A DNA stretch of 64,000 nucleotides from Methanomicrobiaceae archaeon (GCA_016926855.1 JAFGNT010000016.1:14153-78152), one strand, 5' to 3'; positions 5,761 through 59,878 are shown, counted from the first letter of the stretch. Numbers and translations: made by a program. Notes: a model not told the origin generated them from the sequence alone.

Positions 5761-5764
5761 GTGT

Positions 5765-7186
5765 TTACCCTCTCTCCTCTTCGATATGGGTGCGGATGCG
5801 CCGGTTGAGATCTTTCGGATCAGCACGCCCCCGGGTTTCCTTCATGGCCATGCCGACAAGGAAATTCAGGGCACCCTCTTTACCGCTCACATAATCAGCG
5901 ACTGCGTCCGGATTGGCCCGGACAACCGAGGCGACGATGTCTGCAAACTCGTCTCCTTCCGCCTTGCCGAGATTTTCGCGTGCGACGATATCGACCGGCA
6001 TCTCCGGCTCACGCCCTTCCCTGCAGGCATCAAGCAGGTGGCGAAGCACCTCGACACCCGCACGGTCAGTGATCCGCCCCTCTGTAAGAAGGGTGATCAG
6101 GTTTGCGAAATGGTCCGCAGGGATGCGGTCGATCTGCATGGACCGGTATGCGAGCTCTCCGAGGAGCGTGTCCGCAACCCAGGTGGCCGCCAGCTGTGCG
6201 CCCGCGAGAGCCACCGCCTCGTAAAACTCCGCAATCCGGATATCCCCCGTCAGTGTCCGGGCATGGTTCTCCGAGATGTCGTACTGCCGGAGGAAGCGTT
6301 CCCGCCGTGCATCCGGAAGTTCGGGAAGCACGATGCCCTCCACCCAGTCCGCGACCCGTAACGGCAGGAGATCGGGTTCAGGGAAGTATCGGTAATCGTT
6401 CTCCTCCTCCTTCGAGCGTGACGACGTCGTGATGCCGCGCCCTTCCTGGAAGTGCCGGGTCTCGCGCACGATGTGAACCCCGCGCCGTATCAGGTTTTTC
6501 TGCCGCGTTATCTCAAAGGTGAGGGCCTTTTCGACACCCTTGTAGGACGAGATGTTTTTGCACTCCACACGGTTGTGCCCTTCGAGCGAGATGTTTGCAT
6601 CGACCCTGATGGCTCCCTCACGCTCGCCGTCGAAGACGCTGAGGTACTCGAGTGTCGCCCGGAGTTTGTTGAGGAAACGCCGGGCCTCTTTCGGCGACCG
6701 GAGATCAGGATCCGTCACAATCTCGATGAGCGGGATGCCGCTCCGGTTGTAGTCGATGAGGGAGTATCCCGCACGGTCACGGCCCGTCTTGTGGACAAGA
6801 CGCCCCGGATCCTCTTCGAGATGGATGCGCGTGATGCCGATTCGTTTCGGGGTGCCGTCATCGGCCTCTATCTCAAGCCAGCCGCGTTCCGCAAGCGGCT
6901 TGTCGTACATCGTGATCTGGTATCCTTTCGGAAGATCGGGGTAGAAGTAGTTTTTACGGGAGAACACCGACTCGTCGAGCACGGTAAGGTTGAGCGCCTT
7001 GGCAACCCTGAGCGCATAGTCAACCGTTCCGCGGTTCAGGCGGGGCATGGCGCCGGGCAGCCCGAGACAGACCGGGCAGACGTGAGTGTTGGGCCCTTCG
7101 TCCCGGTAATCGGTCGAACAGCCGCAGAAAAGCTTCGTTTTCGTGCTGAGCTGGCAGTGGATTTCGAGCCCGATGATCACGTTCAT
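5765..7186 (-). CDS. gatB: Asp/Glu-tRNA amidotransferase subunit B
   Basis: 473 aa, MNVIIGLEIHCQLSTKTKLFCGCSTDY...CPVCLGLPGAMP. ATGA overlap with the gatA stop. Confidence 0.95.
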   Translation of the reverse strand: MNVIIGLEIHCQLSTKTKLFCGCSTDYRDEGPNTHVCPVCLGLPGAMPRLNRGTVDYALRVAKALNLTVLDESVFSRKNYFYPDLPKGYQITMYDKPLAERGWLEIEADDGTPKRIGITRIHLEEDPGRLVHKTGRDRAGYSLIDYNRSGIPLIEIVTDPDLRSPKEARRFLNKLRATLEYLSVFDGEREGAIRVDANISLEGHNRVECKNISSYKGVEKALTFEITRQKNLIRRGVHIVRETRHFQEGRGITTSSRSKEEENDYRYFPEPDLLPLRVADWVEGIVLPELPDARRERFLRQYDISENHARTLTGDIRIAEFYEAVALAGAQLAATWVADTLLGELAYRSMQIDRIPADHFANLITLLTEGRITDRAGVEVLRHLLDACREGREPEMPVDIVARENLGKAEGDEFADIVASVVRANPDAVADYVSGKEGALNFLVGMAMKETRGRADPKDLNRRIRTHIEEERG

Positions 7187-8771: not shown

Positions 8772-8796
8772 TCTGATTTAAGTACCCTTGTACCGC

Positions 8797-8806
8797 TTTT
8801 TTATAA
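8797..8806 (-). promoter_or_regulatory. candidate TATA box of the gatC-led operon
   Basis: The minus strand reads TTATAAAAAA about 26-35 nt upstream of the gatC ATG at 8771. This is compatible with a leaderless or short-leader archaeal transcript. Confidence 0.4.
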
Positions 8807-8916
8807 CCGTTTTGAGCAAGTTGACTGCGCCTTTTGTGTTTTGTAACCACAGAAAGAACGCCGGTTTTTACCACCAGTCAAGGCTTCTTGCCTTGAAGGT
8901 TTAATCGCTCCACCAT

Positions 8917-8923
8917 AAAAAAA
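8917..8923 (-). terminator. oligo-T terminator after ORF 8982..9416
   Basis: The minus strand reads T7 about 60 nt downstream of the stop at 8982. It is preceded by an imperfect GC hairpin (8951-8975). Confidence 0.4.
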
Positions 8924-8981
8924 CACCTCTCTTTTCACACCGGGGGAACGGGAAGGGCGTTTGTCGCCCCTTCACCTTTCC

Positions 8982-9416
8982 TCATCTCTTTTCAACCACA
9001 CGAACGCGGCCAATAACCGGAGTGATGCCATCCTGGCAATATTCACACCCGGGATCTTCCACATCTGCGTAGATTAGAATGTCCTCTTCAACCGCCAGAT
9101 CACCGAGTATTTCGTCTGGTTTTACGGCCCTCTTGTCTTCTGTGAACAGAAAAACATTCGGCCCGTAATACTCCGTTAAACGGGCATGCGCTTCTAATAG
9201 TGTCTGGAAGTTCTCTCTCCTAAACGGTGCTGCGCTTCCGTCAAGTTCTACCAGGACGTGATATTTTCCTATCTCTTCCTGCCGGACAACCATCACCGGG
9301 CTGTCACCCCATTCTTTCGGAAGATAGATGATCGAACTGCTCTGCCCTGCATATAAGCGAGGTGTCCGCCGGATCGCTTCAAACCCGCTTATTTCGAATT
9401 TGCTTTCTTTCTCCAT
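8982..9416 (-). CDS. hypothetical protein with N-terminal AbrB/SpoVT-like (DUF2080-like) motif
   Basis: 144 aa. The motif SSIIYLPKEWGDSPVMVV resembles the swapped-hairpin motif of the neighbouring DUF2080-like protein. The C-terminal half is acidic with a CxxC. Confidence 0.55.
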   Translation of the reverse strand: MEKESKFEISGFEAIRRTPRLYAGQSSSIIYLPKEWGDSPVMVVRQEEIGKYHVLVELDGSAAPFRRENFQTLLEAHARLTEYYGPNVFLFTEDKRAVKPDEILGDLAVEEDILIYADVEDPGCEYCQDGITPVIGRVRVVEKR

Positions 9417-9514
9417 GTGTGTCTCCTGTAATACACCATGTATTACATATGTATTATGTAGGTTTTAAACATATAAAAAGTCCTGTTTTTCTACGCACCG
9501 CCCCGGAAGTTTCT

Positions 9515-9541
9515 GGTAAGTGGTCATTGTGACCACTTACC
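9515..9541. repeat. perfect 27-nt palindrome (12-bp arms, 3-nt centre)
   Basis: GGTAAGTGGTCA-TTG-TGACCACTTACC, read directly. It lies in the AT-rich spacer between two element ORFs. A second inverted repeat, GTAATAC-N5-GTATTAC, lies at 9428-9446. Confidence 0.9.
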
Positions 9542-9567
9542 ACTTTGATGCGTTTGTCGCCCCTTTT

Positions 9568-9879
9568 TCACGCTTCGGTCACGGCGTCGGGAAACAGCTT
9601 CTCGAGCACGTCATACTGGTTCCGACGTTCAAGCCATCTGATGACCTCATCAGCACACATCGGGACGATCGACGACGAGCCGCTTATTGAGGTTCCGACC
9701 AGTTCCGTGTATGGCGACGCCGGGCCTCCCTCTCCGTGAAGGAACCAGTTCCCTTTTTTTGTCCGGTATAACGTCTCTTCGAAATACGCGAAATCTCCCC
9801 GATTGTGGCTGCTCGAGTATTCGGCGATCTGTTCTGCTGTTCTGGTGTCGTAGATTTTTCTGTCGATAATGACTCTCAT
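9568..9879 (-). CDS. hypothetical protein (element)
   Basis: 103-aa ORF MRVIIDRKIYDTRTAEQIAEY...KKGNWFLHGEGGPASPY. Codon usage looks coding. I recognise no domain. Confidence 0.55.
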   Translation of the reverse strand: MRVIIDRKIYDTRTAEQIAEYSSSHNRGDFAYFEETLYRTKKGNWFLHGEGGPASPYTELVGTSISGSSSIVPMCADEVIRWLERRNQYDVLEKLFPDAVTEA

Positions 9880-9894
9880 TTTTTCAGACTCCCA

Positions 9895-9908
9895 CCCCCA
9901 TATGGGGG
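9895..9908. repeat. perfect 14-nt palindrome CCCCCATATGGGGG followed by a 7-bp stem hairpin
   Basis: Read directly. The hairpin CGGGAGG-N7-CCTCCCG follows at about 9914-9934. Both lie in the 72-nt spacer between ORFs 9952.. and ..9879. Confidence 0.85.
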
Positions 9909-9951
9909 CATGCCGCCGGGAGGGTTTGCACCTCCCGCCCGCGTTGAACGG

Positions 9952-10152
9952 TCAGCGGCGACGGGGTTGTTCTTCGCCGTCCGGATCGCCGAATCGCAGC
10001 CGGGCGCATGCCGTACAGAACCCACCATGCCGCCGGTATTCTTCCAGGGTGAGCGGATACCCGCACTCCTTGCACGTGCAGGGCAGTGAAAAAACGATCA
10101 CGCCCTCACCCTCCAAAATTCCGGGGAAGTCCGGCCCGGAGCCCGGTATCAT
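9952..10152 (-). CDS. small zinc-ribbon protein (element)
   Basis: The C-terminal part reads VIVFSLPCTCKECGYPLTLEEYRRHGGFCTACARL (CxC..C...CxxC). The start is uncertain (10152, 10170 or 10200). It overlaps the 3' end of the upstream ORF in another frame. Confidence 0.45.
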   Translation of the reverse strand: MIPGSGPDFPGILEGEGVIVFSLPCTCKECGYPLTLEEYRRHGGFCTACARLRFGDPDGEEQPRRR

Positions 10153-10480
10153 GTAGGGGCCGGTGTGCATGGTCCGAGAGGGGAACGTCCAGGACAGCAC
10201 CCTCGAGCAGTTTTTTTATGCCCGCTGCCGGTGCGAAGTAACCCCCGCGATCGACAGAAAACAAGACCACACCGCCGGCGCCATACAACCGGCACTCTCC
10301 GCACCCTCGCACAATCTCACAGTCGCCTTCCGGGTGCGGTTCAATCCTCCTGAGGGGGACCTCTTCGCCTGCCAGCACCTTTTTGAGCATCCGGGTCGGC
10401 ATGAGGATCGGGGCGGTGCCGTCGATCAGGACGTGCACAGCCGATCCGAGTTTGATAATTTTCCCACAGTTTCCTAACAT
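10106..10480 (-). CDS. hypothetical protein (element)
   Basis: The ORF 10106..10711 is trimmed to the ATG at 10480 (MLGNCGKIIKLGSAVHVLIDG...), just downstream of a TATA-like box. The longer N-terminal extension would run through the divergent promoter. The last ~30 codons overlap the next ORF, so a frameshift cannot be excluded. Confidence 0.45.
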   Translation of the reverse strand: MLGNCGKIIKLGSAVHVLIDGTAPILMPTRMLKKVLAGEEVPLRRIEPHPEGDCEIVRGCGECRLYGAGGVVLFSVDRGGYFAPAAGIKKLLEGAVLDVPLSDHAHRPLHDTGLRAGLPRNFGG

Positions 10481-10503
10481 TTCTCTCTCTCCTGTTGCTA
10501 TAT

Positions 10504-10566
10504 TGTTGCTACAAAATAGCAATTGGAGTGAACCAATATATAGTTTGCTGCCACAATGTAGCAACA
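10504..10566. promoter_or_regulatory. divergent promoter/operator region with inverted repeats
   Basis: A 9-nt inverted repeat has arms TGTTGCTAC (10504-10512) and GTAGCAACA (10558-10566). An inner palindrome TTGCTA-N5-TAGCAA lies at 10506-10522. TATA-like AATATATA lies at 10535-10542 for the + gene, and CAATATAG reads on the minus strand near 10498-10505. Confidence 0.5.
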
Positions 10567-10724
10567 TGAAACCGTATACGGTGACAATCGAGGCATACGG
10601 GACGGCTGAGAAGGTGGTCGCAAACGGCGGGAACTCCGGACGGGTGTTCTTGCCGAAGGCATGGGTCGGCCGGCAGGTGAAGGTTCTCCTCCTGGAAGAC
10701 ATCGAACACAACCCCCACCTTTAA
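10566..10724 (+). CDS. AbrB/SpoVT-like small DNA-binding protein (DUF2080-like)
   Basis: 52 aa, MKPYTVTIEAYGTAEKVVANGGNSGRVFLPKAWVGRQVKVLLLEDIEHNPHL. The GNSGR-V/I-x-LPK-x-W-x-G-x-x-V-K-V motif is as I recall for archaeal DUF2080 proteins. It is the internal ATG of track ORF 10383..10724. Confidence 0.6.
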   Translation: MKPYTVTIEAYGTAEKVVANGGNSGRVFLPKAWVGRQVKVLLLEDIEHNPHL

Positions 10725-10860
10725 CCACCGCCGCCGTGCATGTTTTCCGGGCACTTCGGCAAACCGCCGGAATGATTCACCGGCCGGGCCGGAGACTCGC
10801 TTAAAACGCCGCTGTGTGGCTCTGAGAGGATTGTTTATATACTCCGTTCTTTTTCCACAC

Positions 10861-10867
10861 AAAAAAA
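10861..10867 (-). terminator. oligo-T terminator after ORF 10919..11416
   Basis: The minus strand reads T7 about 50 nt downstream of the stop at 10919. It marks the end of the long co-directional element operon. Confidence 0.4.
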
Positions 10868-10918
10868 GTGTTTTCCCAGGGAGTGGCTCACCCCATTCGG
10901 GGATCATTGCCCGCCTGC

Positions 10919-11416
10919 TCATTCGGTGAAGCGGGGATTACCGGATACAAAACACCGCACCGTGTGCACCCGTCCGCATGTGCAGGACACCCTCCCCGGT
11001 ATTTCACACGCCGTGAACGTGCCCGGCAACCCACCGATATACAACGGCTCGCCGGAAACGAGACGGGCCGCGGCCGCACTCACACGGACTGCCAGGCTGT
11101 CAACCGCCTTCGGTGAAAGTTCGCCGCCGTCTGGACATGTGAGCTGCTGCACCGGAACACCGTCCAGAAACACCACGGCCTGACCGTTTGCCTGTATCGC
11201 CGCCATGCGTTCCCGTGCAGCCAGCCGCGCCGCTTCCTCCTGTATCTCCCGTCGCCGTGCTTCGGCCGCTGCTTTTTCCTTTTCCTGCCGGGCCTGTTCA
11301 CGTGCTTCCTTCCTCAAAAGTTCGTCGGTGGATATGCCAAGTTCCTTATACAGAAGCTCAATCCGCTCGGATTCGCTTAATAAGCGACTGTCCCTAATTT
11401 TCAGTGTGGCTGTCAT
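10919..11416 (-). CDS. hypothetical protein with charged coiled-coil N-terminus (element)
   Basis: 165 aa. A Glu/Arg/Ala-rich helix (KEAREQARQEKEKAAAEARRREIQEEAARLAARE) is followed by a Cys-containing C-terminal domain. Confidence 0.55.
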   Translation of the reverse strand: MTATLKIRDSRLLSESERIELLYKELGISTDELLRKEAREQARQEKEKAAAEARRREIQEEAARLAARERMAAIQANGQAVVFLDGVPVQQLTCPDGGELSPKAVDSLAVRVSAAAARLVSGEPLYIGGLPGTFTACEIPGRVSCTCGRVHTVRCFVSGNPRFTE

Positions 11417-11422
11417 GTTTTT

Positions 11423-11740
11423 TCACTCCATGAAATGAATGCCGTATTTCCGTTCAAATGCCTTTTGCCGGGCGATTTTCGCCGTTTCGTCACTCTGCTG
11501 CTGCCGGGCGGATAAAACGCGGTCCGCCTCGATACCGGCGATCTGGGTTTTGAGAAGAGCGTGTTTTGTCCTCTCCTGCTGCAGCGTTGCTTCGAGGAGT
11601 CGCCGCCGGATGTCGCCGGAATCCACCGCCGGCCCGACGGGGGAAGTGTTTTCGAATTGCTTTATCTGGCATGCGCTCCGCGGGCCAACTGGCATTTCGG
11701 GCCCGACAAAGTGTGAAATTGTGGGTTTCGATGGTGTCAT
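11423..11740 (-). CDS. hypothetical protein (element)
   Basis: 105-aa ORF. Its ATG overlaps the stop of the upstream micro-ORF (ATGA). Confidence 0.5.
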   Translation of the reverse strand: MTPSKPTISHFVGPEMPVGPRSACQIKQFENTSPVGPAVDSGDIRRRLLEATLQQERTKHALLKTQIAGIEADRVLSARQQQSDETAKIARQKAFERKYGIHFME

Positions 11741-11877
11741 AAGTTTTTATCCTCCTCGTCAAACCGAATCCGGCCAGGGCCAGGTTCGAAATCTTCCGGC
11801 TTGCAGAAAAATACCTTTAATCCGCTGTCCTCTTTCCGTTCAAGCGCCTTTAAGCGCGTTTCAATAGTTCGTGTCAT
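11737..11877 (-). CDS. micro-ORF, 46 aa (element; not in ORF track)
   Basis: My translation is MTRTIETRLKALERKEDSGLKVFFCKPEDFEPGPGRIRFDEEDKNL. The ATG overlaps the upstream stop (ATGA) and the stop overlaps the downstream ATG (ATGA). It exactly fills the gap between two listed ORFs. Confidence 0.45.
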   Translation of the reverse strand: MTRTIETRLKALERKEDSGLKVFFCKPEDFEPGPGRIRFDEEDKNL

Positions 11878-12158
11878 TGTTTTTCCTCCAGGGCGGCGAT
11901 TCGCCGGCTTAACTCGTCAATCTGTTCGTCTTTCAGCGTCGTATTCAGGGCCTGCGCCGTCGCTGACATTGCGCGGACGGCTGCCAGCCAGCCGGGATCG
12001 GATTCTTTCGTCTTGAACCGGGCCGCCGTTATGCGCCCGTGTAATTTTTTCAATACGTCGCTAAGCATGCGGGTAATTTCGTCCCGTTTTAAAGCCTCTC
12101 CGGGTTCCCTTTCGGTTTTAAACGTCCCGGCGGGCGTTCTGGTGCGTGGTTCGGTCAT
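11874..12158 (-). CDS. hypothetical protein (element)
   Basis: 94-aa ORF with a helical C-terminus (DEQIDELSRRIAALEEKQ). Confidence 0.5.
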   Translation of the reverse strand: MTEPRTRTPAGTFKTEREPGEALKRDEITRMLSDVLKKLHGRITAARFKTKESDPGWLAAVRAMSATAQALNTTLKDEQIDELSRRIAALEEKQ

Positions 12159-12237
12159 GCTGCCTCCGTTTTGGTTGTTCTGTTCTCGCTGCAGGGGACC
12201 GGCCGCGGTCGTGGCCAGGGGGGGATACCGTGCGAGG

Positions 12238-12456
12238 TCATGGTGTTCTCCGTCGGATCTCCGGGGCCGGGCCTCGTACCGATTTCGGCCGGTGTGGGTG
12301 AGCCTGGCTGTCGAACCCGATCAGCGACACGCACCGGCATTTTCGGCACATGATGATTTCACCAGGCGCGCGGACCTGCTTCCATTGCGCACCGCATCGG
12401 CCACATGTAAACTCGATCCGCTGCTCGTCGTTGTCGATGTCGTTGTCGTCGCTCAT
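12238..12456 (-). CDS. small zinc-ribbon protein (element)
   Basis: Trimmed to the ATG at 12456, which forms an ATGA overlap with the upstream stop. The sequence reads MSDDNDIDNDEQRIEFTCGRCGAQWKQVRAPGEIIMCRKCRC, with CxxC...CxxC. Confidence 0.5.
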   Translation of the reverse strand: MSDDNDIDNDEQRIEFTCGRCGAQWKQVRAPGEIIMCRKCRCVSLIGFDSQAHPHRPKSVRGPAPEIRRRTP

Positions 12457-13058
12457 GTCCGCACCTCCGGGCCGATTGTCCACGTCACCCCGACGGCATC
12501 CAGTACAACCCGTGGTTTCACTGCTTCCGCCGGCCATCGGTCGGGGCCGTCATAGTCTTTGAGCCAATACACATCCGTCTCCCAGTGCGTGCCTCGCGGA
12601 CCGGGCCCCCGGTCCTCGCGCCGGTGGAAGACAACCGCGATGATTGACTTCTGGTTTGCGAACAGGTGCCGTTTCGGGTTGAATTGCCCGGGGCCGCCCG
12701 GTGAGTAGACTCCACGATGACGCCGGACGTAGGGGAGCTGCATGAGTTCGGCAGGGTTAATGAAGAGCTGTTTTTCTTTCGGGTGCCGTTTCGGTTTCCG
12801 CATGGCGTCCCGTGCCTGCCGGTAGAGTCCCGCCGATCGTGGGTGCCCGAGTGCATCGTGCAGGCGGGTGAGTCCTTGGAGTGCCTGCCGTCGGACGGTA
12901 TCGCCTCGGGCGCACTCGAGCGCGTGCTCGTAGAGTTTGAGTGACTTCTCCAGGTCACGGACGGCCATCCGGCCCCGCTCATGGAGCCGGGCAAAAAACA
13001 GGCACCCGTGAGGGTTGTCCTGCAGGTTCGCGGGGATTGTGCTGGTCATGCTGGTCAT
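12453..13058 (-). CDS. hypothetical protein (element)
   Basis: Trimmed to the ATG at 13058 (MTSMTSTIPANL...), 2 nt after the upstream stop at 13060. I recognise no domain. Confidence 0.5.
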   Translation of the reverse strand: MTSMTSTIPANLQDNPHGCLFFARLHERGRMAVRDLEKSLKLYEHALECARGDTVRRQALQGLTRLHDALGHPRSAGLYRQARDAMRKPKRHPKEKQLFINPAELMQLPYVRRHRGVYSPGGPGQFNPKRHLFANQKSIIAVVFHRREDRGPGPRGTHWETDVYWLKDYDGPDRWPAEAVKPRVVLDAVGVTWTIGPEVRT

Positions 13059-13059
13059 A

Positions 13060-14067
13060 TCACACCTCCTCCAGAGAGACGCCGCCGAATTTGGTACTAG
13101 TACCAAATTGGATTGCCATGTTGTCGAGCGTCTCCCGTTCCAACGCCTCGATTTGTTGTGTCCGCCGTAGAATGTCGGGGTCAATATGGCACTCGATGCA
13201 CATACTCACAAGTTCCCGGAGCACGGGAGGGGGGATGGCGTCAAGTTCCGTGCTCCCCCCCACCCAGGCTTTCGCCCGGTGGTCGTGTTTGTTCCGCTTC
13301 GTCGGCCGTTCCGGTAACCCGAGCCTCTCGATCTGCTCGCGGTTCACGGCCACAACGTCGAGGGTGAAACGCCGCGCTCCCATCTTCGTGAGTTCGTCGC
13401 TGATATGTCGCGGGATGTCCGCACCGGCGGGGTCGTGGTCTCCGAAATAATAGATATACGTCCATTTTTCACGGCTTTTGATTGACTCTGCAGCAGCGTG
13501 AATGAACGACATGGAAGGATACCCTTTACATGGAAAGATGCCGACATCGTACTCTTCCGTGATCGGATCGATGACGCCGATCAGCGCCTCCTTCTCGATC
13601 CAAATTTCCACTTCATCGCGCTGATCGTTCCACAAAGAGCGCCGGTATGTTCGTCTGGTTTCGTCGAGTGCCGCCTGCAGACCCGTATGTGTTTTGGGTT
13701 TCCGAATCCACCGCGTCAAGTCCGCGATGAAACTATAGGGGATAGCCTCCTCCTTTCGCATGTTCCCCAGGTGGTTTGCTGTTTGCCGATACCCCTGCTC
13801 CGTTTTTGGGACAATTCCCCGGGTTTCGAGCTGGTAGAACATTTGTCGGACGGTCATGGGAGTATCGCACTCATCAAAGGATCTGAGAATCCCGACCCAA
13901 ACCCGCGCTGTATCGTCTCGGAGCGGTTTCCGGCCTGCTGCGGCTTTTCCCCGGTTGAAAAAATCGATTATCCCATCATCCGAAATGCTACAGACCGGGA
14001 CGTCACCGATCTTTATATGCGATTCCGGCGTGCATGGGATGATCGGGCCGGCATCGTTTCCGTTCAT
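13060..14067 (-). CDS. Spo11/Topoisomerase VI subunit A-like protein (winged-helix 5Y-CAP + Toprim; Mini-A-type)
   Basis: 335 aa. TVRQMFYQL resembles the R-x-x-[FY]-Y catalytic-Tyr helix. IWIEKEALIGVI supplies the Toprim glutamate. YYFGDHDPAGADI supplies the Toprim DxD followed by P-x-G, as in Top6A/Spo11. No Top6B-like gene is present in the element. Confidence 0.65.
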   Translation of the reverse strand: MNGNDAGPIIPCTPESHIKIGDVPVCSISDDGIIDFFNRGKAAAGRKPLRDDTARVWVGILRSFDECDTPMTVRQMFYQLETRGIVPKTEQGYRQTANHLGNMRKEEAIPYSFIADLTRWIRKPKTHTGLQAALDETRRTYRRSLWNDQRDEVEIWIEKEALIGVIDPITEEYDVGIFPCKGYPSMSFIHAAAESIKSREKWTYIYYFGDHDPAGADIPRHISDELTKMGARRFTLDVVAVNREQIERLGLPERPTKRNKHDHRAKAWVGGSTELDAIPPPVLRELVSMCIECHIDPDILRRTQQIEALERETLDNMAIQFGTSTKFGGVSLEEV

Positions 14068-14122
14068 GCCAGCACCCCCCCGAAGTCGCCGCGGTTAATG
14101 CACAGTGATGATATTTCCCGCA

Positions 14123-17014
14123 TTATTTACCGCCTCCGTGTATACCGGGTGAGGGTGTAGAGGGTGGGGGGGTGCTTTCATCCACTCTAGGTAAATTTAC
14201 ACATTTGTGTTTCTCACACGGAGTAGAGTAATTTCCCTCACCACCCTCTACACCCTCACCACTTTCTGTTAGATCTGCCTGCCGGGTCTGTCGTCCCCCC
14301 TCTTTGATCAGCCATGCGACACTGCCGCCGTGTGCCCGCGTCATCGCTTTTTTGAGAAGGAGCCCGCAGGGGTAAACCACATCGCGAGCCTTTGCAAACG
14401 ATTTCCCGATCCTGGTCCGGAAAGCGTGCCCGGACTTCTCGCGGGCTTCGGCGAGTTCGTCGGGGAGCGAGTCTGTGAGAGGTCGCTCCCCACCGCTGAT
14501 GGTTTCGGCGTTGAGGTGGTCGATAAAGTCCGACACCGTGAACGAGCTCTTAAACTCACCGCGTAGTGCCTGCAGGAAAGCGCTCCACTGTTCGCCCGAT
14601 GCGTCGGCTGATGCGTATAGCCCCTGCTGGTTTGCCATGAACCCCTTGATGCCCGCGTAATCCAGCACACCACTCACAACGTCTATCCACTCTTCAAACC
14701 CCCCGAGTTTGGGTTTTGTCCGTGGTGCAGGCCTGCCGGCGATTATCCAGGCTCGCACCAGAACATACACCGAGGACAGGAGACGGGCCCGGTTATCAAT
14801 CACCCACGTCCGCAGCGGGTAGTGCAGGAACCCGTTTGTGTCACGTTCACCGGGCCGGGCCATCTTCGCGTCAATGCGTGAGTAGAAGCACCTTTGTGCC
14901 ATATCTGGTGAGAGCTGGACGTTGTTCCCGTTAATGAGCCAGAATATCCGGTTCTCAAAAACCACGCTCTTGTTTACTCCCATCCACCGGTCCTTCCACG
15001 CCGACGCCGTTATCACCGCCGCGAGGTTTGAGGTCTTCAGCCCCTGGTCGATGTTGTCCATCAAGATGATGGTTGTCCCCACCGCAAGCTCAGTTGTGAT
15101 GAATTTCCGGAACTCCTCATCACTCGCGGCCTTTGTTTTAATCGGCGGCGGCGACCCCGTGAGGACACGGTATATGACCTCCTGGAGGAGACTCGCCCCG
15201 GTCCGTGGCTGCGGTTTATCGCACAGGTAGGCCGGCACGTTCCCGGAAATAATCGGCCGGGCGACATGAGTAACCAGGGCCGCGATTGCATTGCCCCTGT
15301 CAGCGTGCCGGGCATCGCCGAACGTGTCGGGATCGCTCTCACCGAGGAAGGGGAAATCGTGCAGGAGTTCATCCAGCAGCCGGACGGCCTGATCCACATC
15401 CTCTTTCCCGATAACCTCCGGAACAGTGAACCCGTCGAGGTCCGGGGTAGGGTTGTAAATCAACTCCGTCGCCGCGTCGTAACCCGGATCGGTTACGATC
15501 GTGCCGTCATCCCGGACAATCGGGACATCCACCACACCGATTACCGCCGGCAACCTCCATGTGTGCGGACTCGAGCTGAGCACATCATCGAGAACATGTG
15601 CCGGCGGTGGACAAGGGATCTCTTCAACGCTCCCGTCCCGGAGTTCCCGGCTTTTTACCCATTCGCACGTTCGCATGAGAACGCCCCGGAGCATTTCACG
15701 GGTCACGGGAGCGAGGTTCACACGTCGGCGTTTCTCGTCGAAGTGCAAGGCGACCATTTCACCGGATCGGGCGAACACGTGCGGATCGGACTCGTTGGCC
15801 TTCCGGATCGATTCAAGGGCCTGTTCGGTAAGATCCGGTATCGAACCGCTCACGTAGATCGTCGGGTTTCCCGCACCACTCACATTATTTCCGGCTGTTG
15901 GTGGTGCGCTGCCACTCCTCGCCACGGGCGCAGCTGGTGCATGCTTTTCCCGGCCGGGGTCGTAAATCGCCCGGAGATCGCTCCACCCCATCCCCTGGCA
16001 GGAAGCGTGATGGCATCCCGCAGCAATCGCACCGTTTCCAAATTGAATGGCAAAAGCGCCGTCATTATGCGCCGACGAGAACGGACACCGTTCAAGCTTG
16101 AACAGCGTCCCGCCTTCGTATGGCCGGTCTGACTGCACACCGATACCATGATCGTGAAGCCATGCGCGAAGGTCGATTGACCCGCCGCCTGCCGCTCGAG
16201 TGGGTGCAGCGGGCGGTTTTGGCGCGAGTCCGGCGAGCCATTCCAGCCGCTCGACGGGCACCTGCTGCACCTCGTCCGGCACCCCAAGGATCTTCGCACG
16301 ACGGTGCGGGCGGTCCGGTACATCGTCGCCCTTGCGGGCCGTTGTGCCGTAAAGTTTCCATATCCGGGCGGCGTTGAAATTCGTGGTATCGACCGATACC
16401 GCTTCACCGGAGAAGATGACGTCGAGGGTCGTGAGGCAGCTCTTGATAAGCGCCGTTGCCGCTTCGTCGTTTGCGATGTCGATTGCGTAGAGCAGGTGCG
16501 CTCCGTTCCCGGAATCGGCCATTATAGGCAGCGGGAATCCGTTGTCGGTGAGCCATTCGCCGATTTGTGCGGCCTTCTCGATCGCGCCGGCGTGCTCCTC
16601 GTCACTCGAGGAGATACCGGACGGCCTGACTGCGTCAAGATCGATTGGTAGCCATCGCCGCTGGATAATATCAGCATCGCCGGTCAGGGAGTCTCTTCCG
16701 GCCGGGAGGATTCGTCCTTTCCGTCGGGCGAGAAGCGCCGGAATAACGGGATTTATCGTTACATAAACGCCCTTCGTTGAACCGAGACTGTCCGCAAGCA
16801 GGGCCTCACCGGCGATGTCGTCTTCACCACCGAAATATCCATAGTTTGTCGGGCCGTTTTGCGTAAGGACCCGCACTTCGACAACATCGCCCGGCCCAAA
16901 GAGCAGATTCCGGACCTTCTGGATCTCGTCACGCCGCGTCCCCTCAATCGGTGCGGGGGCGTGCGTGATCTTCCATCCGGCAGCCGTCGCCTCGTTTGTC
17001 ACGGTGTCGGTCAT
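14123..17014 (-). CDS. AEP-family primase-polymerase fused to a large C-terminal domain (replication protein of the element)
   Basis: Trimmed to the ATG at 17014 (ATGA overlap with the upstream stop). AEP motifs are present: LPIDLDAV (DxD), ADSGNGAHLLY (sGxGxH) and VDTTNFNAARIWKLYGT. A Zn motif CPFSSAH...CHHASC follows. The C-terminal ~550 aa has an SF3-helicase-like layout (IILMDNID, LINGNN), but I find no canonical GxxxxGK[ST]. Confidence 0.75.
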   Translation of the reverse strand: MTDTVTNEATAAGWKITHAPAPIEGTRRDEIQKVRNLLFGPGDVVEVRVLTQNGPTNYGYFGGEDDIAGEALLADSLGSTKGVYVTINPVIPALLARRKGRILPAGRDSLTGDADIIQRRWLPIDLDAVRPSGISSSDEEHAGAIEKAAQIGEWLTDNGFPLPIMADSGNGAHLLYAIDIANDEAATALIKSCLTTLDVIFSGEAVSVDTTNFNAARIWKLYGTTARKGDDVPDRPHRRAKILGVPDEVQQVPVERLEWLAGLAPKPPAAPTRAAGGGSIDLRAWLHDHGIGVQSDRPYEGGTLFKLERCPFSSAHNDGAFAIQFGNGAIAAGCHHASCQGMGWSDLRAIYDPGREKHAPAAPVARSGSAPPTAGNNVSGAGNPTIYVSGSIPDLTEQALESIRKANESDPHVFARSGEMVALHFDEKRRRVNLAPVTREMLRGVLMRTCEWVKSRELRDGSVEEIPCPPPAHVLDDVLSSSPHTWRLPAVIGVVDVPIVRDDGTIVTDPGYDAATELIYNPTPDLDGFTVPEVIGKEDVDQAVRLLDELLHDFPFLGESDPDTFGDARHADRGNAIAALVTHVARPIISGNVPAYLCDKPQPRTGASLLQEVIYRVLTGSPPPIKTKAASDEEFRKFITTELAVGTTIILMDNIDQGLKTSNLAAVITASAWKDRWMGVNKSVVFENRIFWLINGNNVQLSPDMAQRCFYSRIDAKMARPGERDTNGFLHYPLRTWVIDNRARLLSSVYVLVRAWIIAGRPAPRTKPKLGGFEEWIDVVSGVLDYAGIKGFMANQQGLYASADASGEQWSAFLQALRGEFKSSFTVSDFIDHLNAETISGGERPLTDSLPDELAEAREKSGHAFRTRIGKSFAKARDVVYPCGLLLKKAMTRAHGGSVAWLIKEGGRQTRQADLTESGEGVEGGEGNYSTPCEKHKCVNLPRVDESTPPPSTPSPGIHGGGK

Positions 17015-17136
17015 TCGGGGACCTCGTCGAGATATAACCTCCGGATTGCGGACCGCTGCTGATCGGTGAGTTTTCCAAGGTCCCAACCGTTCGCCTCGAG
17101 CACCATGATCGCGCCGCCTCGCGTCCGTGGAACCAT
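17011..17136 (-). CDS. micro-ORF upstream of primase (element)
   Basis: It ends ...MVLEANGWDLGKLTDQQRSAIRRLYLDEVPE, and its stop overlaps the primase ATG (ATGA). The start is uncertain: ATG at 17136, or GTG at 17175 overlapping the previous stop. Confidence 0.35.
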   Translation of the reverse strand: MVPRTRGGAIMVLEANGWDLGKLTDQQRSAIRRLYLDEVPE

Positions 17137-17167
17137 CGTCGCGCCACATGTACGGGTTTTCCCGGAA

Positions 17168-17332
17168 TCAGGCACTTTCCACACGCTCCGGAGGGTAATC
17201 TTCAATCGTCCAGATACCGGCCTCAACCATTATCTCACCGATCCCGATGAGGGCGGGCGTGGCCTTCTCGAACGCCTCAATCGCCTCAAGGGTGACAATG
17301 CGTGGGTTTTCGCACGTGGCGATCGGGGTCAT
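17168..17332 (-). CDS. micro-ORF, 54 aa (element; not in ORF track)
   Basis: My translation is MTPIATCENPRIVTLEAIEAFEKATPALIGIGEIMVEAGIWTIEDYPPERVESA. The ATG overlaps the RHH gene stop (ATGA). Confidence 0.4.
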   Translation of the reverse strand: MTPIATCENPRIVTLEAIEAFEKATPALIGIGEIMVEAGIWTIEDYPPERVESA

Positions 17333-17481
17333 CGCGGCCGCCTTCCTGCGCGGTCGTCGGATGCAAGGCTGTTTGACAAAATCTCGTTGATATACGTCGA
17401 GCGGGGAATGAGCCCCCGCCGCCGGTCGGTTTCGGCGACGAGCTCGTCATCGAGCGTCAATTGAACGGGACGTTTTACCAT
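17329..17481 (-). CDS. ribbon-helix-helix (CopG/Arc-like) DNA-binding protein
   Basis: This is the internal ATG of track ORF 17329..17754. The sequence MVKRPVQLTLDDELVAETDRRRGLIPRSTYINEILSNSL shows the typical RHH beta-strand plus two helices. It is the first gene of the element's long operon. Confidence 0.6.
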   Translation of the reverse strand: MVKRPVQLTLDDELVAETDRRRGLIPRSTYINEILSNSLASDDRAGRRPR

Positions 17482-17550
17482 GAAAAGTAATAGTTGTGTG
17501 AATAGGTATAAATATCGGAATGCTAAAAATAATATAGAGTGCGTGTAAAA
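17482..17550. promoter_or_regulatory. AT-rich divergent promoter region of the element
   Basis: Two TATA-like boxes, GGTATAAATAT and CTAAAAATAATATAG, lie between the RHH gene (minus) and ORF 17551.. (plus). The spacing is compatible with leaderless transcripts. Confidence 0.45.
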
Positions 17551-18186
17551 ATGAATAAAACCCGGAAAGAAAACGAATTTATCGATGAAGTGAAGGAAGA
17601 GCTTTTTTGGATCAACCAAAAAAAACCGATCGGGGTTCCGTCGGAAGAATGGGAGCGCGAAAAAAACCGGTTTTTTTTGTTTGTCGATCCGCCATTTTTT
17701 GCCGTCACGCGGGGGCTCGAGATTATAAAATTTGGCCAGACGAACAACGCGCATCTCGCGCTCATCGAGCAGACCGGAACGGTGAAAACCATCGATTTTT
17801 CAAAAGACAGGGAGTTTCGTGTATCGCTGACCGACGGCGGCGTGTCGTTTTCTGACAACGTCTGCGAATGGTGCGGTGCTCCGTTTCCGGAAGGACTCAC
17901 CCGGCGGCAGTCGGGAAAGCGCCGGTTTTGTGACGCTCTCTGCAAACAGCGGTTCGCGGCATTCGAAAAGCAGTTCAGCGCACTCTGTGAAAATGAGAGT
18001 GTAGCGGACGGGCTGCAGCTTCTGCACGACTTGGGATCCCCGGCCGCATACCTGCTGGGTATCCTCCAACGTGGGCGAACATGTCTTCACTGTGGCGGCG
18101 ACATACCACCCGAAAAACCTTTAAATAGCCGTTTCTGCTGCGATTTGTGCCGTTTCGCGCACCACAACGCGAAAAAAAAGCGATAA
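17551..18186 (+). CDS. hypothetical protein with two CxxC...FC-x3-C zinc motifs (element)
   Basis: The ATG at 17551 (MNKTRKENEF...) is preferred over the GTG at 17539. The two motifs are CEWCG..RRFCDALCKQRF and CLHCGG..SRFCCDLCRFAHH. Confidence 0.55.
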   Translation: MNKTRKENEFIDEVKEELFWINQKKPIGVPSEEWEREKNRFFLFVDPPFFAVTRGLEIIKFGQTNNAHLALIEQTGTVKTIDFSKDREFRVSLTDGGVSFSDNVCEWCGAPFPEGLTRRQSGKRRFCDALCKQRFAAFEKQFSALCENESVADGLQLLHDLGSPAAYLLGILQRGRTCLHCGGDIPPEKPLNSRFCCDLCRFAHHNAKKKR

Positions 18187-18199
18187 AAAAAGATTATTT

Positions 18200-19408
18200 T
18201 CACTGTTTTCCTTCAAGTGCCGCCTTCACCCGCCTGTCTATGAGCGCCTGCAGTGCCTCCGGGTGCGCTGCCACGTCCGCCTGCATACTCTGCACCGTGG
18301 CGATCTGCCTCTGAATCTTCGCGAGTTCGGCACGTAATGTATCGTTCTCCTCGCGGAGCTCGTCAAGGTGTCCGCCGACGATCGCGGCCGCCACATCATC
18401 CGCCACACCGACACAGACGGCACCCTCCGCCTGCAGGTAGTGCTGCCGGAGATCCTCCTCGGTATAGCGGACATATGCATCGGCGAGGTATCCGTTATGC
18501 CCGATCAGCAGCTCCACCACGTCGATCGGTATCCGCTGCGCCATGACCGTCCGGAAAAACTTCCGGCACTGGTGAAGGTGGACCCGTCGCCGGTTCGTCT
18601 TCGGGTCGATATCGTCGACGCCTGCCTTCTTCAGGGCGTTCGCAAAAGAATATTGGAGAGTCGCAGGATGCACCGGGAAGATACGATCGTCGCCGTCGAT
18701 AACCTTCACCAGGTCCTCCTTCCCGTGATACCGCAATAGTCCGTTATTACGCTGCACCGATGATGTGAGCCACTTGTCCCGCACCTCGAGCCAGGCACGA
18801 ACGGCGGCGGCTGCCTCCCGACTAATAAAGGTTGTGCGAGGATCCCCAGACTTTGTGATGTCGCCCGGGATCGCAATCCGGGCCGGCTCTTCGTCGAGGT
18901 GGATGTCCTCCATCCGGAGGAGGAGTGTCTCGCCGATACGCATCCCAGAACTAAGCATCGTCAAGAACACCGCCTTTGTCTGGACCGGCATATACGGCAC
19001 GATTTTCTGTATCAGGTCACGGGAGAACGTGGCCTCCCGGGTCCGTGCCAGCCGTCCCTTCGGTGCCTTCTTCTTCGTCGCCTTCCAGACATCATCAGCG
19101 ATCTCGATCCCGTTCGCCTTAGAGAACTCTTTCAGGACAGCCAGCCAGAACTGCGCGGACTTCGGCGGTGACTTCGAGGCGTTCAGGGATGCCGCATATC
19201 GCTGAAGGTCAAGCGCATAGTTCCGCGGTTCTGTGAAATAGGCATTGGCGAGGGCTTCATACTGCCGGGCCTCTTCCTGCGTGACGACCCGGCCCTTCCG
19301 CACCGGCTCATAAATGAAATCCAGATACCGGCGGCAGGCACTCGCATAACTGGATCGGGTGCCTTTGTTCCCCTGTAAAGATATAAAATCTGCGATCCTG
19401 TGACTCAT
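18200..19408 (-). CDS. tyrosine recombinase / phage-type integrase
   Basis: 402 aa. Catalytic-domain signatures are present: SSGMRIGETLLLRMEDI (Arg I), HLHQCRKFFRT (H-x-x-R) and LIGHNGYLADAYVRY (His/Tyr). Confidence 0.85.
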   Translation of the reverse strand: MSHRIADFISLQGNKGTRSSYASACRRYLDFIYEPVRKGRVVTQEEARQYEALANAYFTEPRNYALDLQRYAASLNASKSPPKSAQFWLAVLKEFSKANGIEIADDVWKATKKKAPKGRLARTREATFSRDLIQKIVPYMPVQTKAVFLTMLSSGMRIGETLLLRMEDIHLDEEPARIAIPGDITKSGDPRTTFISREAAAAVRAWLEVRDKWLTSSVQRNNGLLRYHGKEDLVKVIDGDDRIFPVHPATLQYSFANALKKAGVDDIDPKTNRRRVHLHQCRKFFRTVMAQRIPIDVVELLIGHNGYLADAYVRYTEEDLRQHYLQAEGAVCVGVADDVAAAIVGGHLDELREENDTLRAELAKIQRQIATVQSMQADVAAHPEALQALIDRRVKAALEGKQ

Positions 19409-19430
19409 ACAGAGTATATATGTTGCTTAG

Positions 19431-20417
19431 TTATAATAAACTTTTCACGTAGTCAGCAACACAACAATAACCGTTTTCACGTGCAAGGTTCCGGATCACT
19501 TTCCAGACACCGCTGCCGTACTGCATTGCCTTCTTCTCGTACCTGGCGATATCCGGCGGCATTTCCCGCTCCGCAACCCGCCTGAGGTCGCGTTTTCTCA
19601 CTCCACCCGCAACCATCCCTGCGGGCGGCAGCGCCTGAGCAGCGCGCACGACACGGATGTCAAGGTACGGCAGCGAAAAGGACGTGCCGTGAAGGCCTCC
19701 GACCGCCTGGTCACGCGCACTCTGGGCGGCAAGCCCGCGGAAATCCTTCTCGAGATCCCCGGCGAGGTCCGTACTTACGAGGTACCGGGCATATCCTCCA
19801 AAGAGTTCATCTGCGCCCTGGCCTGCAAGAATACGGGTATATCCGTGCTCCGCCGCCCATGCGGCAACACAGTACAGCGTTGTTGCGATAGAGGCGTCAA
19901 CGGGATTTTTGTCCGGGATGACCGGCACCACGGCATGCAATGCCGCGGAGATCATGGCAGGCGTCAGTTCGACAGTATGAAGCGACAGCCCGAGCTTCTC
20001 TGCGACATATGCCGCCCGCTCCAGATCGTGAGATCCGGGCAGGCCGACTGCCACGCAGGGAAGACCGGCAAGTACCGCGATGAGGCTTGAGTCCACGCCC
20101 CCGGAGAGTGCGGTGATACCCGCATCGCTCCGGAGCCGTACCGCCTCGACGATAGCGTCATGGAGATCGAGATCCGGCGGATCGGGTGAAACGGTGCCCG
20201 CTTCTCTTCCGTTGCAGAAAACAGTGCCGGCGGGACAGGGGCCGGGTATAATTCCGAAATGGTCCCGTGCCACGCAGCCGTCCCAGGAAAGCAGGAATTC
20301 GCCCCCGAAACGCCCGACGGCGGACGGCCCGGCCTCCAGCAGTGCCCCGACATCGTCGGCGGACAGGCGCTGCCCGTCCTCCTCGATCCACCCTTGCAGC
20401 ATTACGGTGTCAACCAT
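19431..20417 (-). CDS. asparagine synthase-family PP-loop ATPase lacking a canonical N-terminal glutaminase Cys
   Basis: 328 aa with the PP-loop LSGGVDSSLIA and QGADELFGGY. The N-terminus is MVDTVML (no Cys2) and the N-domain is only ~95 aa. Confidence 0.75.
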   Translation of the reverse strand: MVDTVMLQGWIEEDGQRLSADDVGALLEAGPSAVGRFGGEFLLSWDGCVARDHFGIIPGPCPAGTVFCNGREAGTVSPDPPDLDLHDAIVEAVRLRSDAGITALSGGVDSSLIAVLAGLPCVAVGLPGSHDLERAAYVAEKLGLSLHTVELTPAMISAALHAVVPVIPDKNPVDASIATTLYCVAAWAAEHGYTRILAGQGADELFGGYARYLVSTDLAGDLEKDFRGLAAQSARDQAVGGLHGTSFSLPYLDIRVVRAAQALPPAGMVAGGVRKRDLRRVAEREMPPDIARYEKKAMQYGSGVWKVIRNLARENGYCCVADYVKSLL

Positions 20418-58753: not shown

Positions 58754-59878
58754 ATGCTCTACGAAACGGCGACCACCGATAGACTCCTCGATGCGATCGA
58801 TGCCCGTCCTCTCCCGGCGGATCACGTAGCTGTCATTCTGCTCGGCGAAAAGGCTCCCGCCGACATCCCCGCATTGATTTCGGCCCTGAACTCGCGTGAT
58901 ATCCCGTTCATCGGCGGGATATTCCCTGCCGTTATATCGGGGGAGTCGTGTTCCGAAACAGGAGCGATCATCATGCAGCTCCCCTCCCACAGACGCCCGT
59001 TTCTGCTGACTGAAGCAGAAGAGTGTGCGGATGCAGTTCCCGGTGCCCTATCGGAAGAGGGAGGGGGCGGAACCGCTCTTGTCTTTGTTGACGGCCTCTC
59101 AGAAGCAGTTCCTTCTCTCCTCACCCAATGCCTGAACCGTTTCGGTGCCACCTTCAGTTTTATCGGGGCCGGGGCAGGATCGCTCAGCCGGAAAAGGGGG
59201 CCAGCCGTCTTTTGCGGGGAAGGATTTTTCAGGGACGCTGCTGTTGTGGCGCTGATCGATCTCGAATGCCGTCTTAGTATCAGGCACGGGTGGAAACGGA
59301 TAGGTACTCCCCTGGTTGCGACACGCACCGTCGGGAACACTATCCTGGAACTGAACTGGGAGCCGGCACTTGAGGTATACCGTGAGGTTGTCAGAAAACA
59401 TTCGGGAAAAACAATCACTGCCGACAATTTTTTCGCTATCGCCAGAGGGCATCCCTTTGGTATCTATTCCGAGGGGGGCGAGGATATTGTCCGTGACCCG
59501 ATAGCTCTCACGAACGAAGGAGGGCTTGTCTGCGTCGGAAACATTCCGGAAAATGCCGTGCTGCATATTCTTACGGGGTCACCCGAAGCACTTACGGAGG
59601 CGGCAGGCGAAGCGGCATCGGCGGCACTCAGGTATGATGGGGACGCGATCCGCACCGTGCTGGTGATCGACTGCATATCACGCATGCTCTACCTCGGGGA
59701 CGCCTTTGCCGACGAGCTTGCCGCTGTGGGACACAATGTCGAAAAACGGGATCCTGCGCTTATTATGGAGGGTATCCTCTCAATCGGGGAAATCTCCTCT
59801 GGTAACGCCGGGATTTTACATTTTTTCAATAAAACGATTGTAGTGGGTGCGTTGCTTGACAGAAGAAACAAAGACTGA
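58754..59878 (+). CDS. FIST-domain sensory protein
   Basis: 374 aa. The architecture resembles FIST_N/FIST_C (…IPFIGGIFPAVI…, …GIYSEGGEDIVRDP…, …GEISSGN…). The call rests on recalled pattern only. Confidence 0.55.
   Translation: MLYETATTDRLLDAIDARPLPADHVAVILLGEKAPADIPALISALNSRDIPFIGGIFPAVISGESCSETGAIIMQLPSHRRPFLLTEAEECADAVPGALSEEGGGGTALVFVDGLSEAVPSLLTQCLNRFGATFSFIGAGAGSLSRKRGPAVFCGEGFFRDAAVVALIDLECRLSIRHGWKRIGTPLVATRTVGNTILELNWEPALEVYREVVRKHSGKTITADNFFAIARGHPFGIYSEGGEDIVRDPIALTNEGGLVCVGNIPENAVLHILTGSPEALTEAAGEAASAALRYDGDAIRTVLVIDCISRMLYLGDAFADELAAVGHNVEKRDPALIMEGILSIGEISSGNAGILHFFNKTIVVGALLDRRNKD

Follow-up and report, generated by a model that had tools for sequence, protein, structure and literature searches.

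The window analysed here is a 64,000-nucleotide stretch of DNA from a Methanomicrobiaceae archaeon (GCA_016926855.1, JAFGNT010000016.1:14153-78152). At positions 13060..14067 it carries the gene for a Topo mini-A, a distant stand-alone homologue of Top6A and Spo11, located in an integrated mobile element. Taken as a whole, the data are best explained by a mini-A that belongs to the replication operon of this element and acts on the element's DNA as a homodimeric, ATP-independent DNA cutter using a tyrosine and Mg2+; we consider this explanation fairly probable. An earlier note on this DNA had described a 335-amino acid (aa) protein here by its motifs TVRQMFYQL, IWIEKEAL and FGDHDPAGADI. All three are present in the translated open reading frame (ORF), at residues 72-80, 155-162 and 208-218, respectively. 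The location given earlier was right in its coordinates, but it left unstated that the gene lies on the minus strand. The ORF starts with ATG, and GGGGGGTG, a purine-rich Shine-Dalgarno-like run, is found just 5′ of it. Database record P0001, a "hypothetical protein" of a Methanomicrobiaceae archaeon metagenome-assembled genome, is identical to the window protein. The gene and its main parts are as follows.

13060..14067, minus strand: Topo mini-A gene, 335 aa, 5Y-CAP-like winged helix and Toprim domain without an ATPase domain (ORF, phrog_6247, AlphaFold2 (AF2) model, Top6A fold match, alignment with phage Mini-A)
13828..13854, minus strand: catalytic-tyrosine motif T72-V-R74-Q-M-F-Y78-Q-L (alignment of 269 relatives, hhalign versus SPO11, AF2 secondary structure)
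13288..13620, minus strand: Toprim domain, residues ~150-260, with Glu158 (IWIEKEAL) and Asp210/Asp212 (GDHDPAG) (residue conservation, hhalign, local JetD match)
13234..13254, minus strand: T2BI box S272-T-E274-L-D276-A-I278, a variant of the Mini-A signature xWELDAL (family consensus, PaMx25 gp51 column, signature of PMC7671362)

Topo mini-A was described by Takahashi et al. (2019, NAR Genom Bioinform, PMC7671362). That paper gives Pseudomonas phage NP1 as an example and defines the family by a length of about 300 aa, the presence of the 5Y-CAP and Toprim domains only, the motifs RxxF/YY, E + DxDxxG and xWELDAL, an origin in mobile elements and the lack of a B subunit. Mini-A homologues of Asgard archaeal viruses and mobile elements were reported by Medvedeva et al. 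(bioRxiv 10.1101/2021.07.29.453957). The window protein has the same organisation: a 5Y-CAP domain without the Top6B-binding N-terminal part, a Toprim domain, the RxxF/YY motif, the Glu, DxDxxG and an ELDA-type T2BI box. It is encoded in a mobile element with no B subunit nearby, and its similarity to named members is about E = 1e-16 to 1e-32.

A search of the PHROG library returned phrog_6247, "DNA topoisomerase", with E = 2.4e-57 over residues 68-323. In a tblastn search of phages, gp51 of Pseudomonas phage PaMx25 was found at E = 4e-27; it aligns with the window protein end to end, and the Mini-A motifs share columns. Three "uncultured archaeon" records labelled 'Topo mini-A' (including LC711082/LC711084) were matched in a plasmid collection, the best with E = 5e-16. 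These alignments bear out the earlier attribution of the protein to the Mini-A type. The genus of PaMx25, Nipunavirus, is named after phage NP1, hence the designation "NP1-type". The plasmid collection also contains many matching Streptomyces plasmids. Matches were found in 83 phage genomes (tblastn), 13 of the 30 listed being annotated as 'DNA topoisomerase'; the phages and viruses listed include Nipunavirus Pseudomonas phages, Salmonella phage SPN19, Xylella phages and the archaeal virus HCIV-1. Searches of Pfam, NCBIfam and PDB sequences with the single mini-A protein gave no informative match.

The family is large. A word-indexed protein search found 1,103 relatives, and an exhaustive profile search collected 12,650 clusters (50% identity) at E ≤ 1e-3, 8,203 of them at E ≤ 1e-10. 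Scanning one genome per GTDB species confirmed at least 422 mini-A loci, mostly in Planctomycetota, Acidobacteriota, Chloroflexota and Proteobacteria, with a few in Methanosarcinales and Methanoregula.

The putative catalytic residues are conserved almost without exception. Among 269 relatives, D210 and G215 are present in all 269, R74 and E158 in 268 each, Y78 and D212 in 267 each, and position 77 is F or Y in 267. The tyrosine, whose conservation the earlier note had made a test of its proposal, is thus kept in 267 of the 269 homologues. The preservation of R74, Y78, E158, D210, D212 and G215 in 267-269 of 269 sequences indicates that catalysis is under selection. The observation as a whole lies far beyond chance, because the motifs are (nearly) invariant across these relatives and the family comprises 12,650 clusters. 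A catalytically inert DNA-binding or scaffold protein of the replisome would agree with the fact that no activity has been reported for any Mini-A, but a near-invariant Tyr, Arg, Glu and DxD over 269 diverged sequences are hard to explain without catalysis, and such a role appears very improbable.

The T2BI box follows the consensus S-V-E-[LV]-D-A-I in the same 269 relatives, with E274 and A277 each found in 250/269. At the second position, V occurs in 232 sequences and T in 7, W being outside the five commonest residues, and the E-L-D-A core is kept. The window box STELDAI occupies the same alignment column as SWELDAL of PaMx25 gp51. Most close relatives have S-V-E-L-D-A-I, and both forms differ from the published xWELDAL, a signature derived from only 23 sequences in PMC7671362. 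Other differences from the described Mini-A are an extra N-terminal segment (residues ~19-67, confidently modelled) and a 'GTSTxF' tail, both of which are shared only by the closest archaeal relatives. In addition, the window element has no recognisable virus genes, whereas (pro)viruses were stressed in PMC7671362.

The C-terminal tail corresponds to residues 322-335 (13060-13101, minus strand). Its form 'GTST[QK]F' is common to the closest archaeal homologues and is missing in bacterial and phage members. The tail, whose predicted local distance difference test (pLDDT) score is low, ~55, may be a motif for docking. Between the Toprim domain and the T2BI box (residues 251-267; 13267-13317, minus strand) there is a basic motif, LP-x-RPTK-x(2-4)-D-x-RAK, which is strongly conserved. 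Its conserved positions are R254, P255, T256, K257, D262 and R264; phage Mini-A keep the motif only partly, and it is not discussed in the available part of PMC7671362.

The structure of mini-A was predicted by AF2 with confidence (mean pLDDT 89.7, predicted template modelling score 0.83). Tyr78 lies on helix 73-82, ahead of the long helix 90-105 of the winged-helix unit, and an alpha/beta Toprim unit comes next. The top five PDB fold matches obtained with Foldseek are all Top6A (1d3y_B, 9o8p_A, 9o0g_A, 9o7o_A and 1d3y_A), with probabilities of 0.99-1.0 and E-values of 4e-4 to 1e-3 (3.8e-4 for 1d3y_B). The alignments have 181-340 columns, and four of the five (261-340) span both domains. The entry 1d3y is M. 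jannaschii Top6A, and 9o8p, 9o0g and 9o7o are 2026 cryo-electron microscopy structures of M. mazei Topo VI with DNA. RecR and small Toprim proteins rank after Top6A in this search, and a fold search of BFVD returned generic Toprim matches only, nothing useful.

Alignment of the family with an SPO11 profile by hhalign is collinear. It pairs TVRQMFY with TKRDIYY, VEIWIEKEAL with LIVEKDAT, KGYP with KGVP and GDHDPAG with DADPHG, and it places mini-A residues 151-257 on SPO11 Toprim residues 127-239. The profile was built from real SPO11 proteins retrieved with a bait sequence, and their identity was checked by their names and by Pfam families PF04406 and PF21180. The winged helix and Toprim domain reported earlier as the domain pair of Top6A/Spo11 are therefore seen again in the predicted fold and in the order of the aligned motifs.

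The likeness to Top6A/Spo11 thus consists of the two-domain fold, the R-x-x-aromatic-Y tyrosine, the collinear Toprim Glu and DxD, and the T2BI-box Glu. Mini-A differs in being shorter, in lacking the B-subunit-binding region, a GHKL partner and a Pfam TP6A_N or Toprim match, and in an identity of only 10-14% in structural alignments. An orthologous A subunit of the Top6A/Spo11 type was rejected on account of the missing PF04406/PF21180 match and of the missing GHKL partner, both in the element and in the scanned part of the window. On sequence evidence alone the deep link to Top6A/Spo11 is weak; the fold match and the PSI-BLAST and phylogenetic analyses in the literature point the same way.

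No GHKL/HATPase_c match was obtained in the element ORFs (~8772-19430), as expected from the earlier observation that no Top6B gene lies nearby. Among the 33 window ORFs scanned against Pfam, a part of all its ORFs, the only HATPase_c domain belongs to a PAS/HisKA_2 sensor kinase (59847-61802) located 46 kb away. Mini-A might also work as an alternative A subunit that borrows the Top6B ATPase of the host and forms a hybrid type IIB topoisomerase. It is homologous to Top6A, and a methanogen host should encode Topo VI, which is not seen in the scanned part of the window. However, according to PMC7671362, Mini-A lack the N-terminal part of 5Y-CAP that binds Top6B. Furthermore, most close relatives occur in Planctomycetota, Acidobacteriota and Chloroflexota, bacteria generally without Topo VI. 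Such borrowing is improbable in the extreme.

JetD and MksG are also Top6A-like Toprim proteins without an ATPase domain, and their sequence is similar around the DxD. MksG is an ATP-independent, cation-dependent nuclease whose CAP-like domain has no tyrosine (PMC10123090). Mini-A might accordingly be a hydrolytic nuclease of the JetD/MksG type serving element exclusion, host DNA degradation or defence. PADLOC JetD models do match the window protein, at E = 8e-5, but only over 40 residues (190-229) around the DxD, and a few homologues carry PF09664/DUF2399 in precomputed Pfam annotations. JetD/MksG are nuclease subunits of the Wadjet/MksBEFG plasmid defence and act together with SMC-like JetABC proteins. 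No SMC-like or JetABC genes were found among the element ORFs, and the neighbours of mini-A are replication genes rather than defence genes. The top 50 fold matches of the AF2 model include no JetD structure, and Tyr78 and Arg74, the former having no counterpart in the CAP-equivalent domain of MksG, are near-invariant in mini-A. A nuclease of this type is quite unlikely. Membership of JetD/MksG/DUF2399 was rejected on the basis of the local 40-residue match, the conserved Tyr and the absence of SMC-like genes in the element; the searches did not place the protein in an unrelated Toprim family, the possibility raised against it in the earlier note.

Topo VIII was also considered and rejected. 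Like mini-A, it is encoded by mobile elements, has an A half without the N-terminal part of 5Y-CAP and carries a T2BI box with V-E-L. It is, however, a plasmid-borne fusion of B and A halves with an N-terminal Bergerat ATPase, H2TH, transducer and the box RVELNAM, all of which are missing in mini-A: the protein has 335 aa without an ATPase half, and its box is STELDAI.

The preferred reading of mini-A as a DNA cutter of a replication operon relies further on the surroundings of the gene. The element and the relevant neighbours are listed below.

8772..19430, ORFs mostly on the minus strand: integrated element, ~10.6 kb, limits approximate (between host gatC and an asparagine-synthase-like gene)
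18200..19408, minus strand: tyrosine integrase at one end of the element (PF00589, E = 2.6e-14)
14123..17149, minus strand: predicted AEP primase-polymerase of 1008 aa, comprising a Zn-binding module and a large C-terminal domain (motifs, AF2, PDB fold matches, PHROGs)
12453..13058, minus strand: 201-aa ORFan (ATG 1 nucleotide after the mini-A stop codon)

The mini-A start is 55 nucleotides downstream of the stop codon of the 1008-aa ORF on the same strand. The NCBI model of this upstream gene starts at Met46 (17014), and its motif residues are numbered here along the modelled segment from Met46. The earlier note had called it a primase-polymerase gene. Since sequence searches of Pfam, NCBIfam and PDB gave no match, this assignment was examined through motifs and structure prediction. 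In the family (1,989 relatives) the conserved features are DxD, SGNGxH, a third Asp (D209) and a C..H..CH..C zinc module after the AEP core. The N-terminal part was modelled by AF2 with a pLDDT of 86.8, and the 18 best PDB matches of this model are all AEP enzymes (LigD-Pol, CAPP Prim-Pol, PrimPolC and PriS). The identification as an AEP primase-polymerase is supported by this model. The C-terminal domain matches only PHROG 10537/29234/19930, which are annotated as unknown or 'polymerase/primase', and is not called a helicase here. Some relatives of the family carry PF27228 or D5_N. In locus L002 the C-terminal domain is encoded by a separate gene directly downstream of mini-A.

On the other side, GGAGGAGGTG, a run in the 3′ end of mini-A, precedes the start of the 201-aa ORF, and the two genes are probably translationally coupled. 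The 201-aa ORF has only a weak TPR_12 match, and no homologue of it was found beside mini-A in 88 other loci. It was rejected as a conserved partner ('Mini-B') for this reason and in view of the heterogeneous downstream neighbours elsewhere.

The closest mini-A relatives with long contigs are situated in integrase-bearing islands. In loci L003 and L004 a 1075-aa Prim-Pol gene overlaps the mini-A start, the same synteny as in the window. The window 1008-aa protein showed no similarity to the L003 Prim-Pol in a BLAST comparison; therefore, the shared synteny involves non-orthologous replicases. Locus L006 combines mini-A with a Prim-Pol gene, terminase genes and a serine recombinase. In phage PaMx25 the mini-A gene lies between DNA ligase and Sak4 genes, near genes for a Cas4-exonuclease, a helicase and a primase. 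The AEP domain of the window protein is also found in L048 and L073, where it is joined to VapE and encoded immediately downstream of mini-A.

For a wider survey, proteins of at least 150 aa encoded right next to mini-A on the same strand in the GTDB loci were scanned as sets. Among the 47 on the downstream side are Prim-Pol (5), AAA_25 (5), DnaB (3), VapE (2), D5_N (2) and DUF5906 (2). Those upstream, 46 in number, include DUF5906 (4), Prim-Pol (3), D5_N (3), DUF3987 (2) and Rep_1 (2), and DnaG zinc ribbon, IstB and DnaB once each. The 20 largest same-strand neighbours (at least 600 aa) were scanned one by one. Primase or helicase domains are present in 17 of them, in at least five non-orthologous architectures; the remaining three are a protein of L066 homologous to the C-terminal domain of the window AEP protein, an unrelated kinase and an unknown protein, which makes 18/20 primase/helicase proteins if that of L066 is included. 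The architectures found are Prim-Pol, D5_N with DUF5906, VapE, AAA_25, DUF3987, DnaG zinc ribbon, AEP-TOTE and NrS-1-type. The replicase is exchanged, yet mini-A stays among genes of replication and recombination, a pattern usual for functional linkage. Primase or helicase neighbours of Mini-A are not mentioned in PMC7671362.

A place in replication modules, together with a conserved Tyr and a metal site that fit a covalent nickase, would also suit a replication initiator. Such a protein would nick or cut the origin of the element, stay bound through Tyr78 and supply a 3′-OH in the manner of a rolling-circle Rep. A role in replication initiation has been proposed for skuldviruses of Asgard archaea (bioRxiv 10.1101/2021.07.29.453957), viruses in which mini-A is the only recognisable replication gene. 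In the window and in many other loci, however, a primase or primase-helicase makes primers de novo, and priming from a nick is not needed. Moreover, the two Rep_1 upstream neighbours are themselves initiators, and WyrdV4 encodes both an HUH Rep and mini-A. An initiator role is unlikely on these grounds.

For the preferred reading, a homodimeric cutter, the following mechanism can be proposed. Two copies of mini-A would dimerise, with the Tyr of one protomer facing the Mg2+ site of the other and Glu274 of the T2BI box presumably at the dimer interface. The dimer would cut DNA by Mg2+-dependent transesterification, leaving 5′ ends linked through Tyr78, and would reseal the break reversibly without ATP. 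More tentatively, mini-A might cooperate with the AEP primase-polymerase on the DNA of the element. As a swivel or decatenase, it could then relax or undo topological links between circles that are being replicated; alternatively, it could process the origin or replication intermediates. Hybrid active sites across the dimer are known from the literature for Top6A/Spo11. Mouse SPO11 alone, when dimerised, forms covalent 5′-linked double-strand breaks, and it is also able to reseal nicks (PMC11922746); an A subunit without a partner is therefore a credible enzyme.

A number of observations weigh against this explanation. No demonstrated activity of any Mini-A was found in the accessible literature. 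As to the relation to Top6A/Spo11, the Foldseek TM-scores versus Top6A are low (~0.3), which we attribute to a different orientation of the two domains in the model. The Pfam models TP6A_N (PF04406) and TOP6A-Spo11_Toprim (PF21180) gave no match at E ≤ 1, although control SPO11 proteins carry both. A PDB search with a 32-sequence family profile found no match, and the collinear hhalign alignment has E = 0.03 only, which is supportive but not decisive. As to the neighbourhood, the survey is limited in size and lacks a formal background control, a gene of a small element may well adjoin the replicase anyway, and many loci have no recognisable replication gene beside mini-A.

Two homologues deserve a separate description. 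In Methanoregula sp. (L001 10001-10954, and L013) the mini-A copy matches residues 11-250 only and continues into unrelated sequence. The integrase island around it is very short, and the gene is probably in decay. ORF35 of the haloarchaeal sphaerolipovirus HCIV-1 (L008 5935-6966) is a mini-A homologue with the box NVELNAL, and the genome is linear according to the record. Viruses of this group carry terminal proteins. A Tyr-linked 5′ adduct would be an obvious candidate for such a protein.

The element itself is flanked by the host genes topA, gatB, gatA and gatC on one side and by Asn_synthase, purB and corA on the other. Besides the integrase it contains about twelve ORFs, most of them on the minus strand and none with a Pfam family. 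No direct repeat of at least 14 nucleotides was found at the element borders, where the only match, of 11 nucleotides, is at chance level, and the search for the integration site found no tRNA. The borders are approximate because neither an attachment (att) repeat nor a tRNA was found. The 11-nucleotide match is the exact repeat ATAACCGTTTT, at 8803-8813 and 19467-19477, the sole candidate att core (E ~1). One copy lies just outside gatC and the other just past the integrase start, within the 3′ end of the asparagine-synthase-like gene. A perfect 16-nucleotide direct repeat, GCGTTTGTCGCCCCTT, occurs inside the element at 8957-8972 and 9550-9565. Each copy is just 3′ of a minus-strand element ORF (8982-9416 and 9568-9879), and the repeat may be a shared terminator or regulatory motif.

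Homologues of the element gene orf94 (11874-12158, minus strand) are found in L002, as a DUF8136 protein, and in L011, and homologues of orf103 (9568-9879, minus strand) in L066. Judging by these sequence similarities, the mini-A-bearing loci may share a loosely conserved element backbone. The host type IA topoisomerase gene (Topoisom_bac, Toprim, zinc ribbon and HhH; 2950-5826, minus strand) adjoins gatCAB at a distance of 3 kb from the element border and is unrelated to the element.

The Topo mini-A family, its mobile-element context and the absence of a B subunit were known already, and the window gene by itself adds no new kind of system. Of the novelty suggested in the earlier note, a new member of the family remains, but it had been published that Mini-A occur in archaeal mobile elements and that a 'Mini-B' is lacking. 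The additions made here are modest: the ELDA-box variant without Trp, which dominates this large branch, the finding that the family is very large, the verification by motifs and modelling of a Pfam-invisible AEP primase next door, and the recurrent pairing with non-orthologous primase and helicase genes.

In a wider perspective, which we put forward tentatively and with considerable doubt, mini-A would be a dedicated, ATP-independent, Spo11-like break-and-rejoin enzyme that accompanies primase-helicase replisomes in small mobile elements of bacteria and archaea, whatever the type of replicase. It would serve them as a swivel or decatenase of their own, or would introduce breaks capped by protein from which recombination-dependent replication starts, and it would retain the ancestral stand-alone state that gave rise to Topo VI and Spo11. 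Mini-A represents the simplest natural form of the Top6A/Spo11 cutting module, and its setting in a replication module offers two things to test in biochemical work, a partner protein and, as substrate, the DNA of the element.

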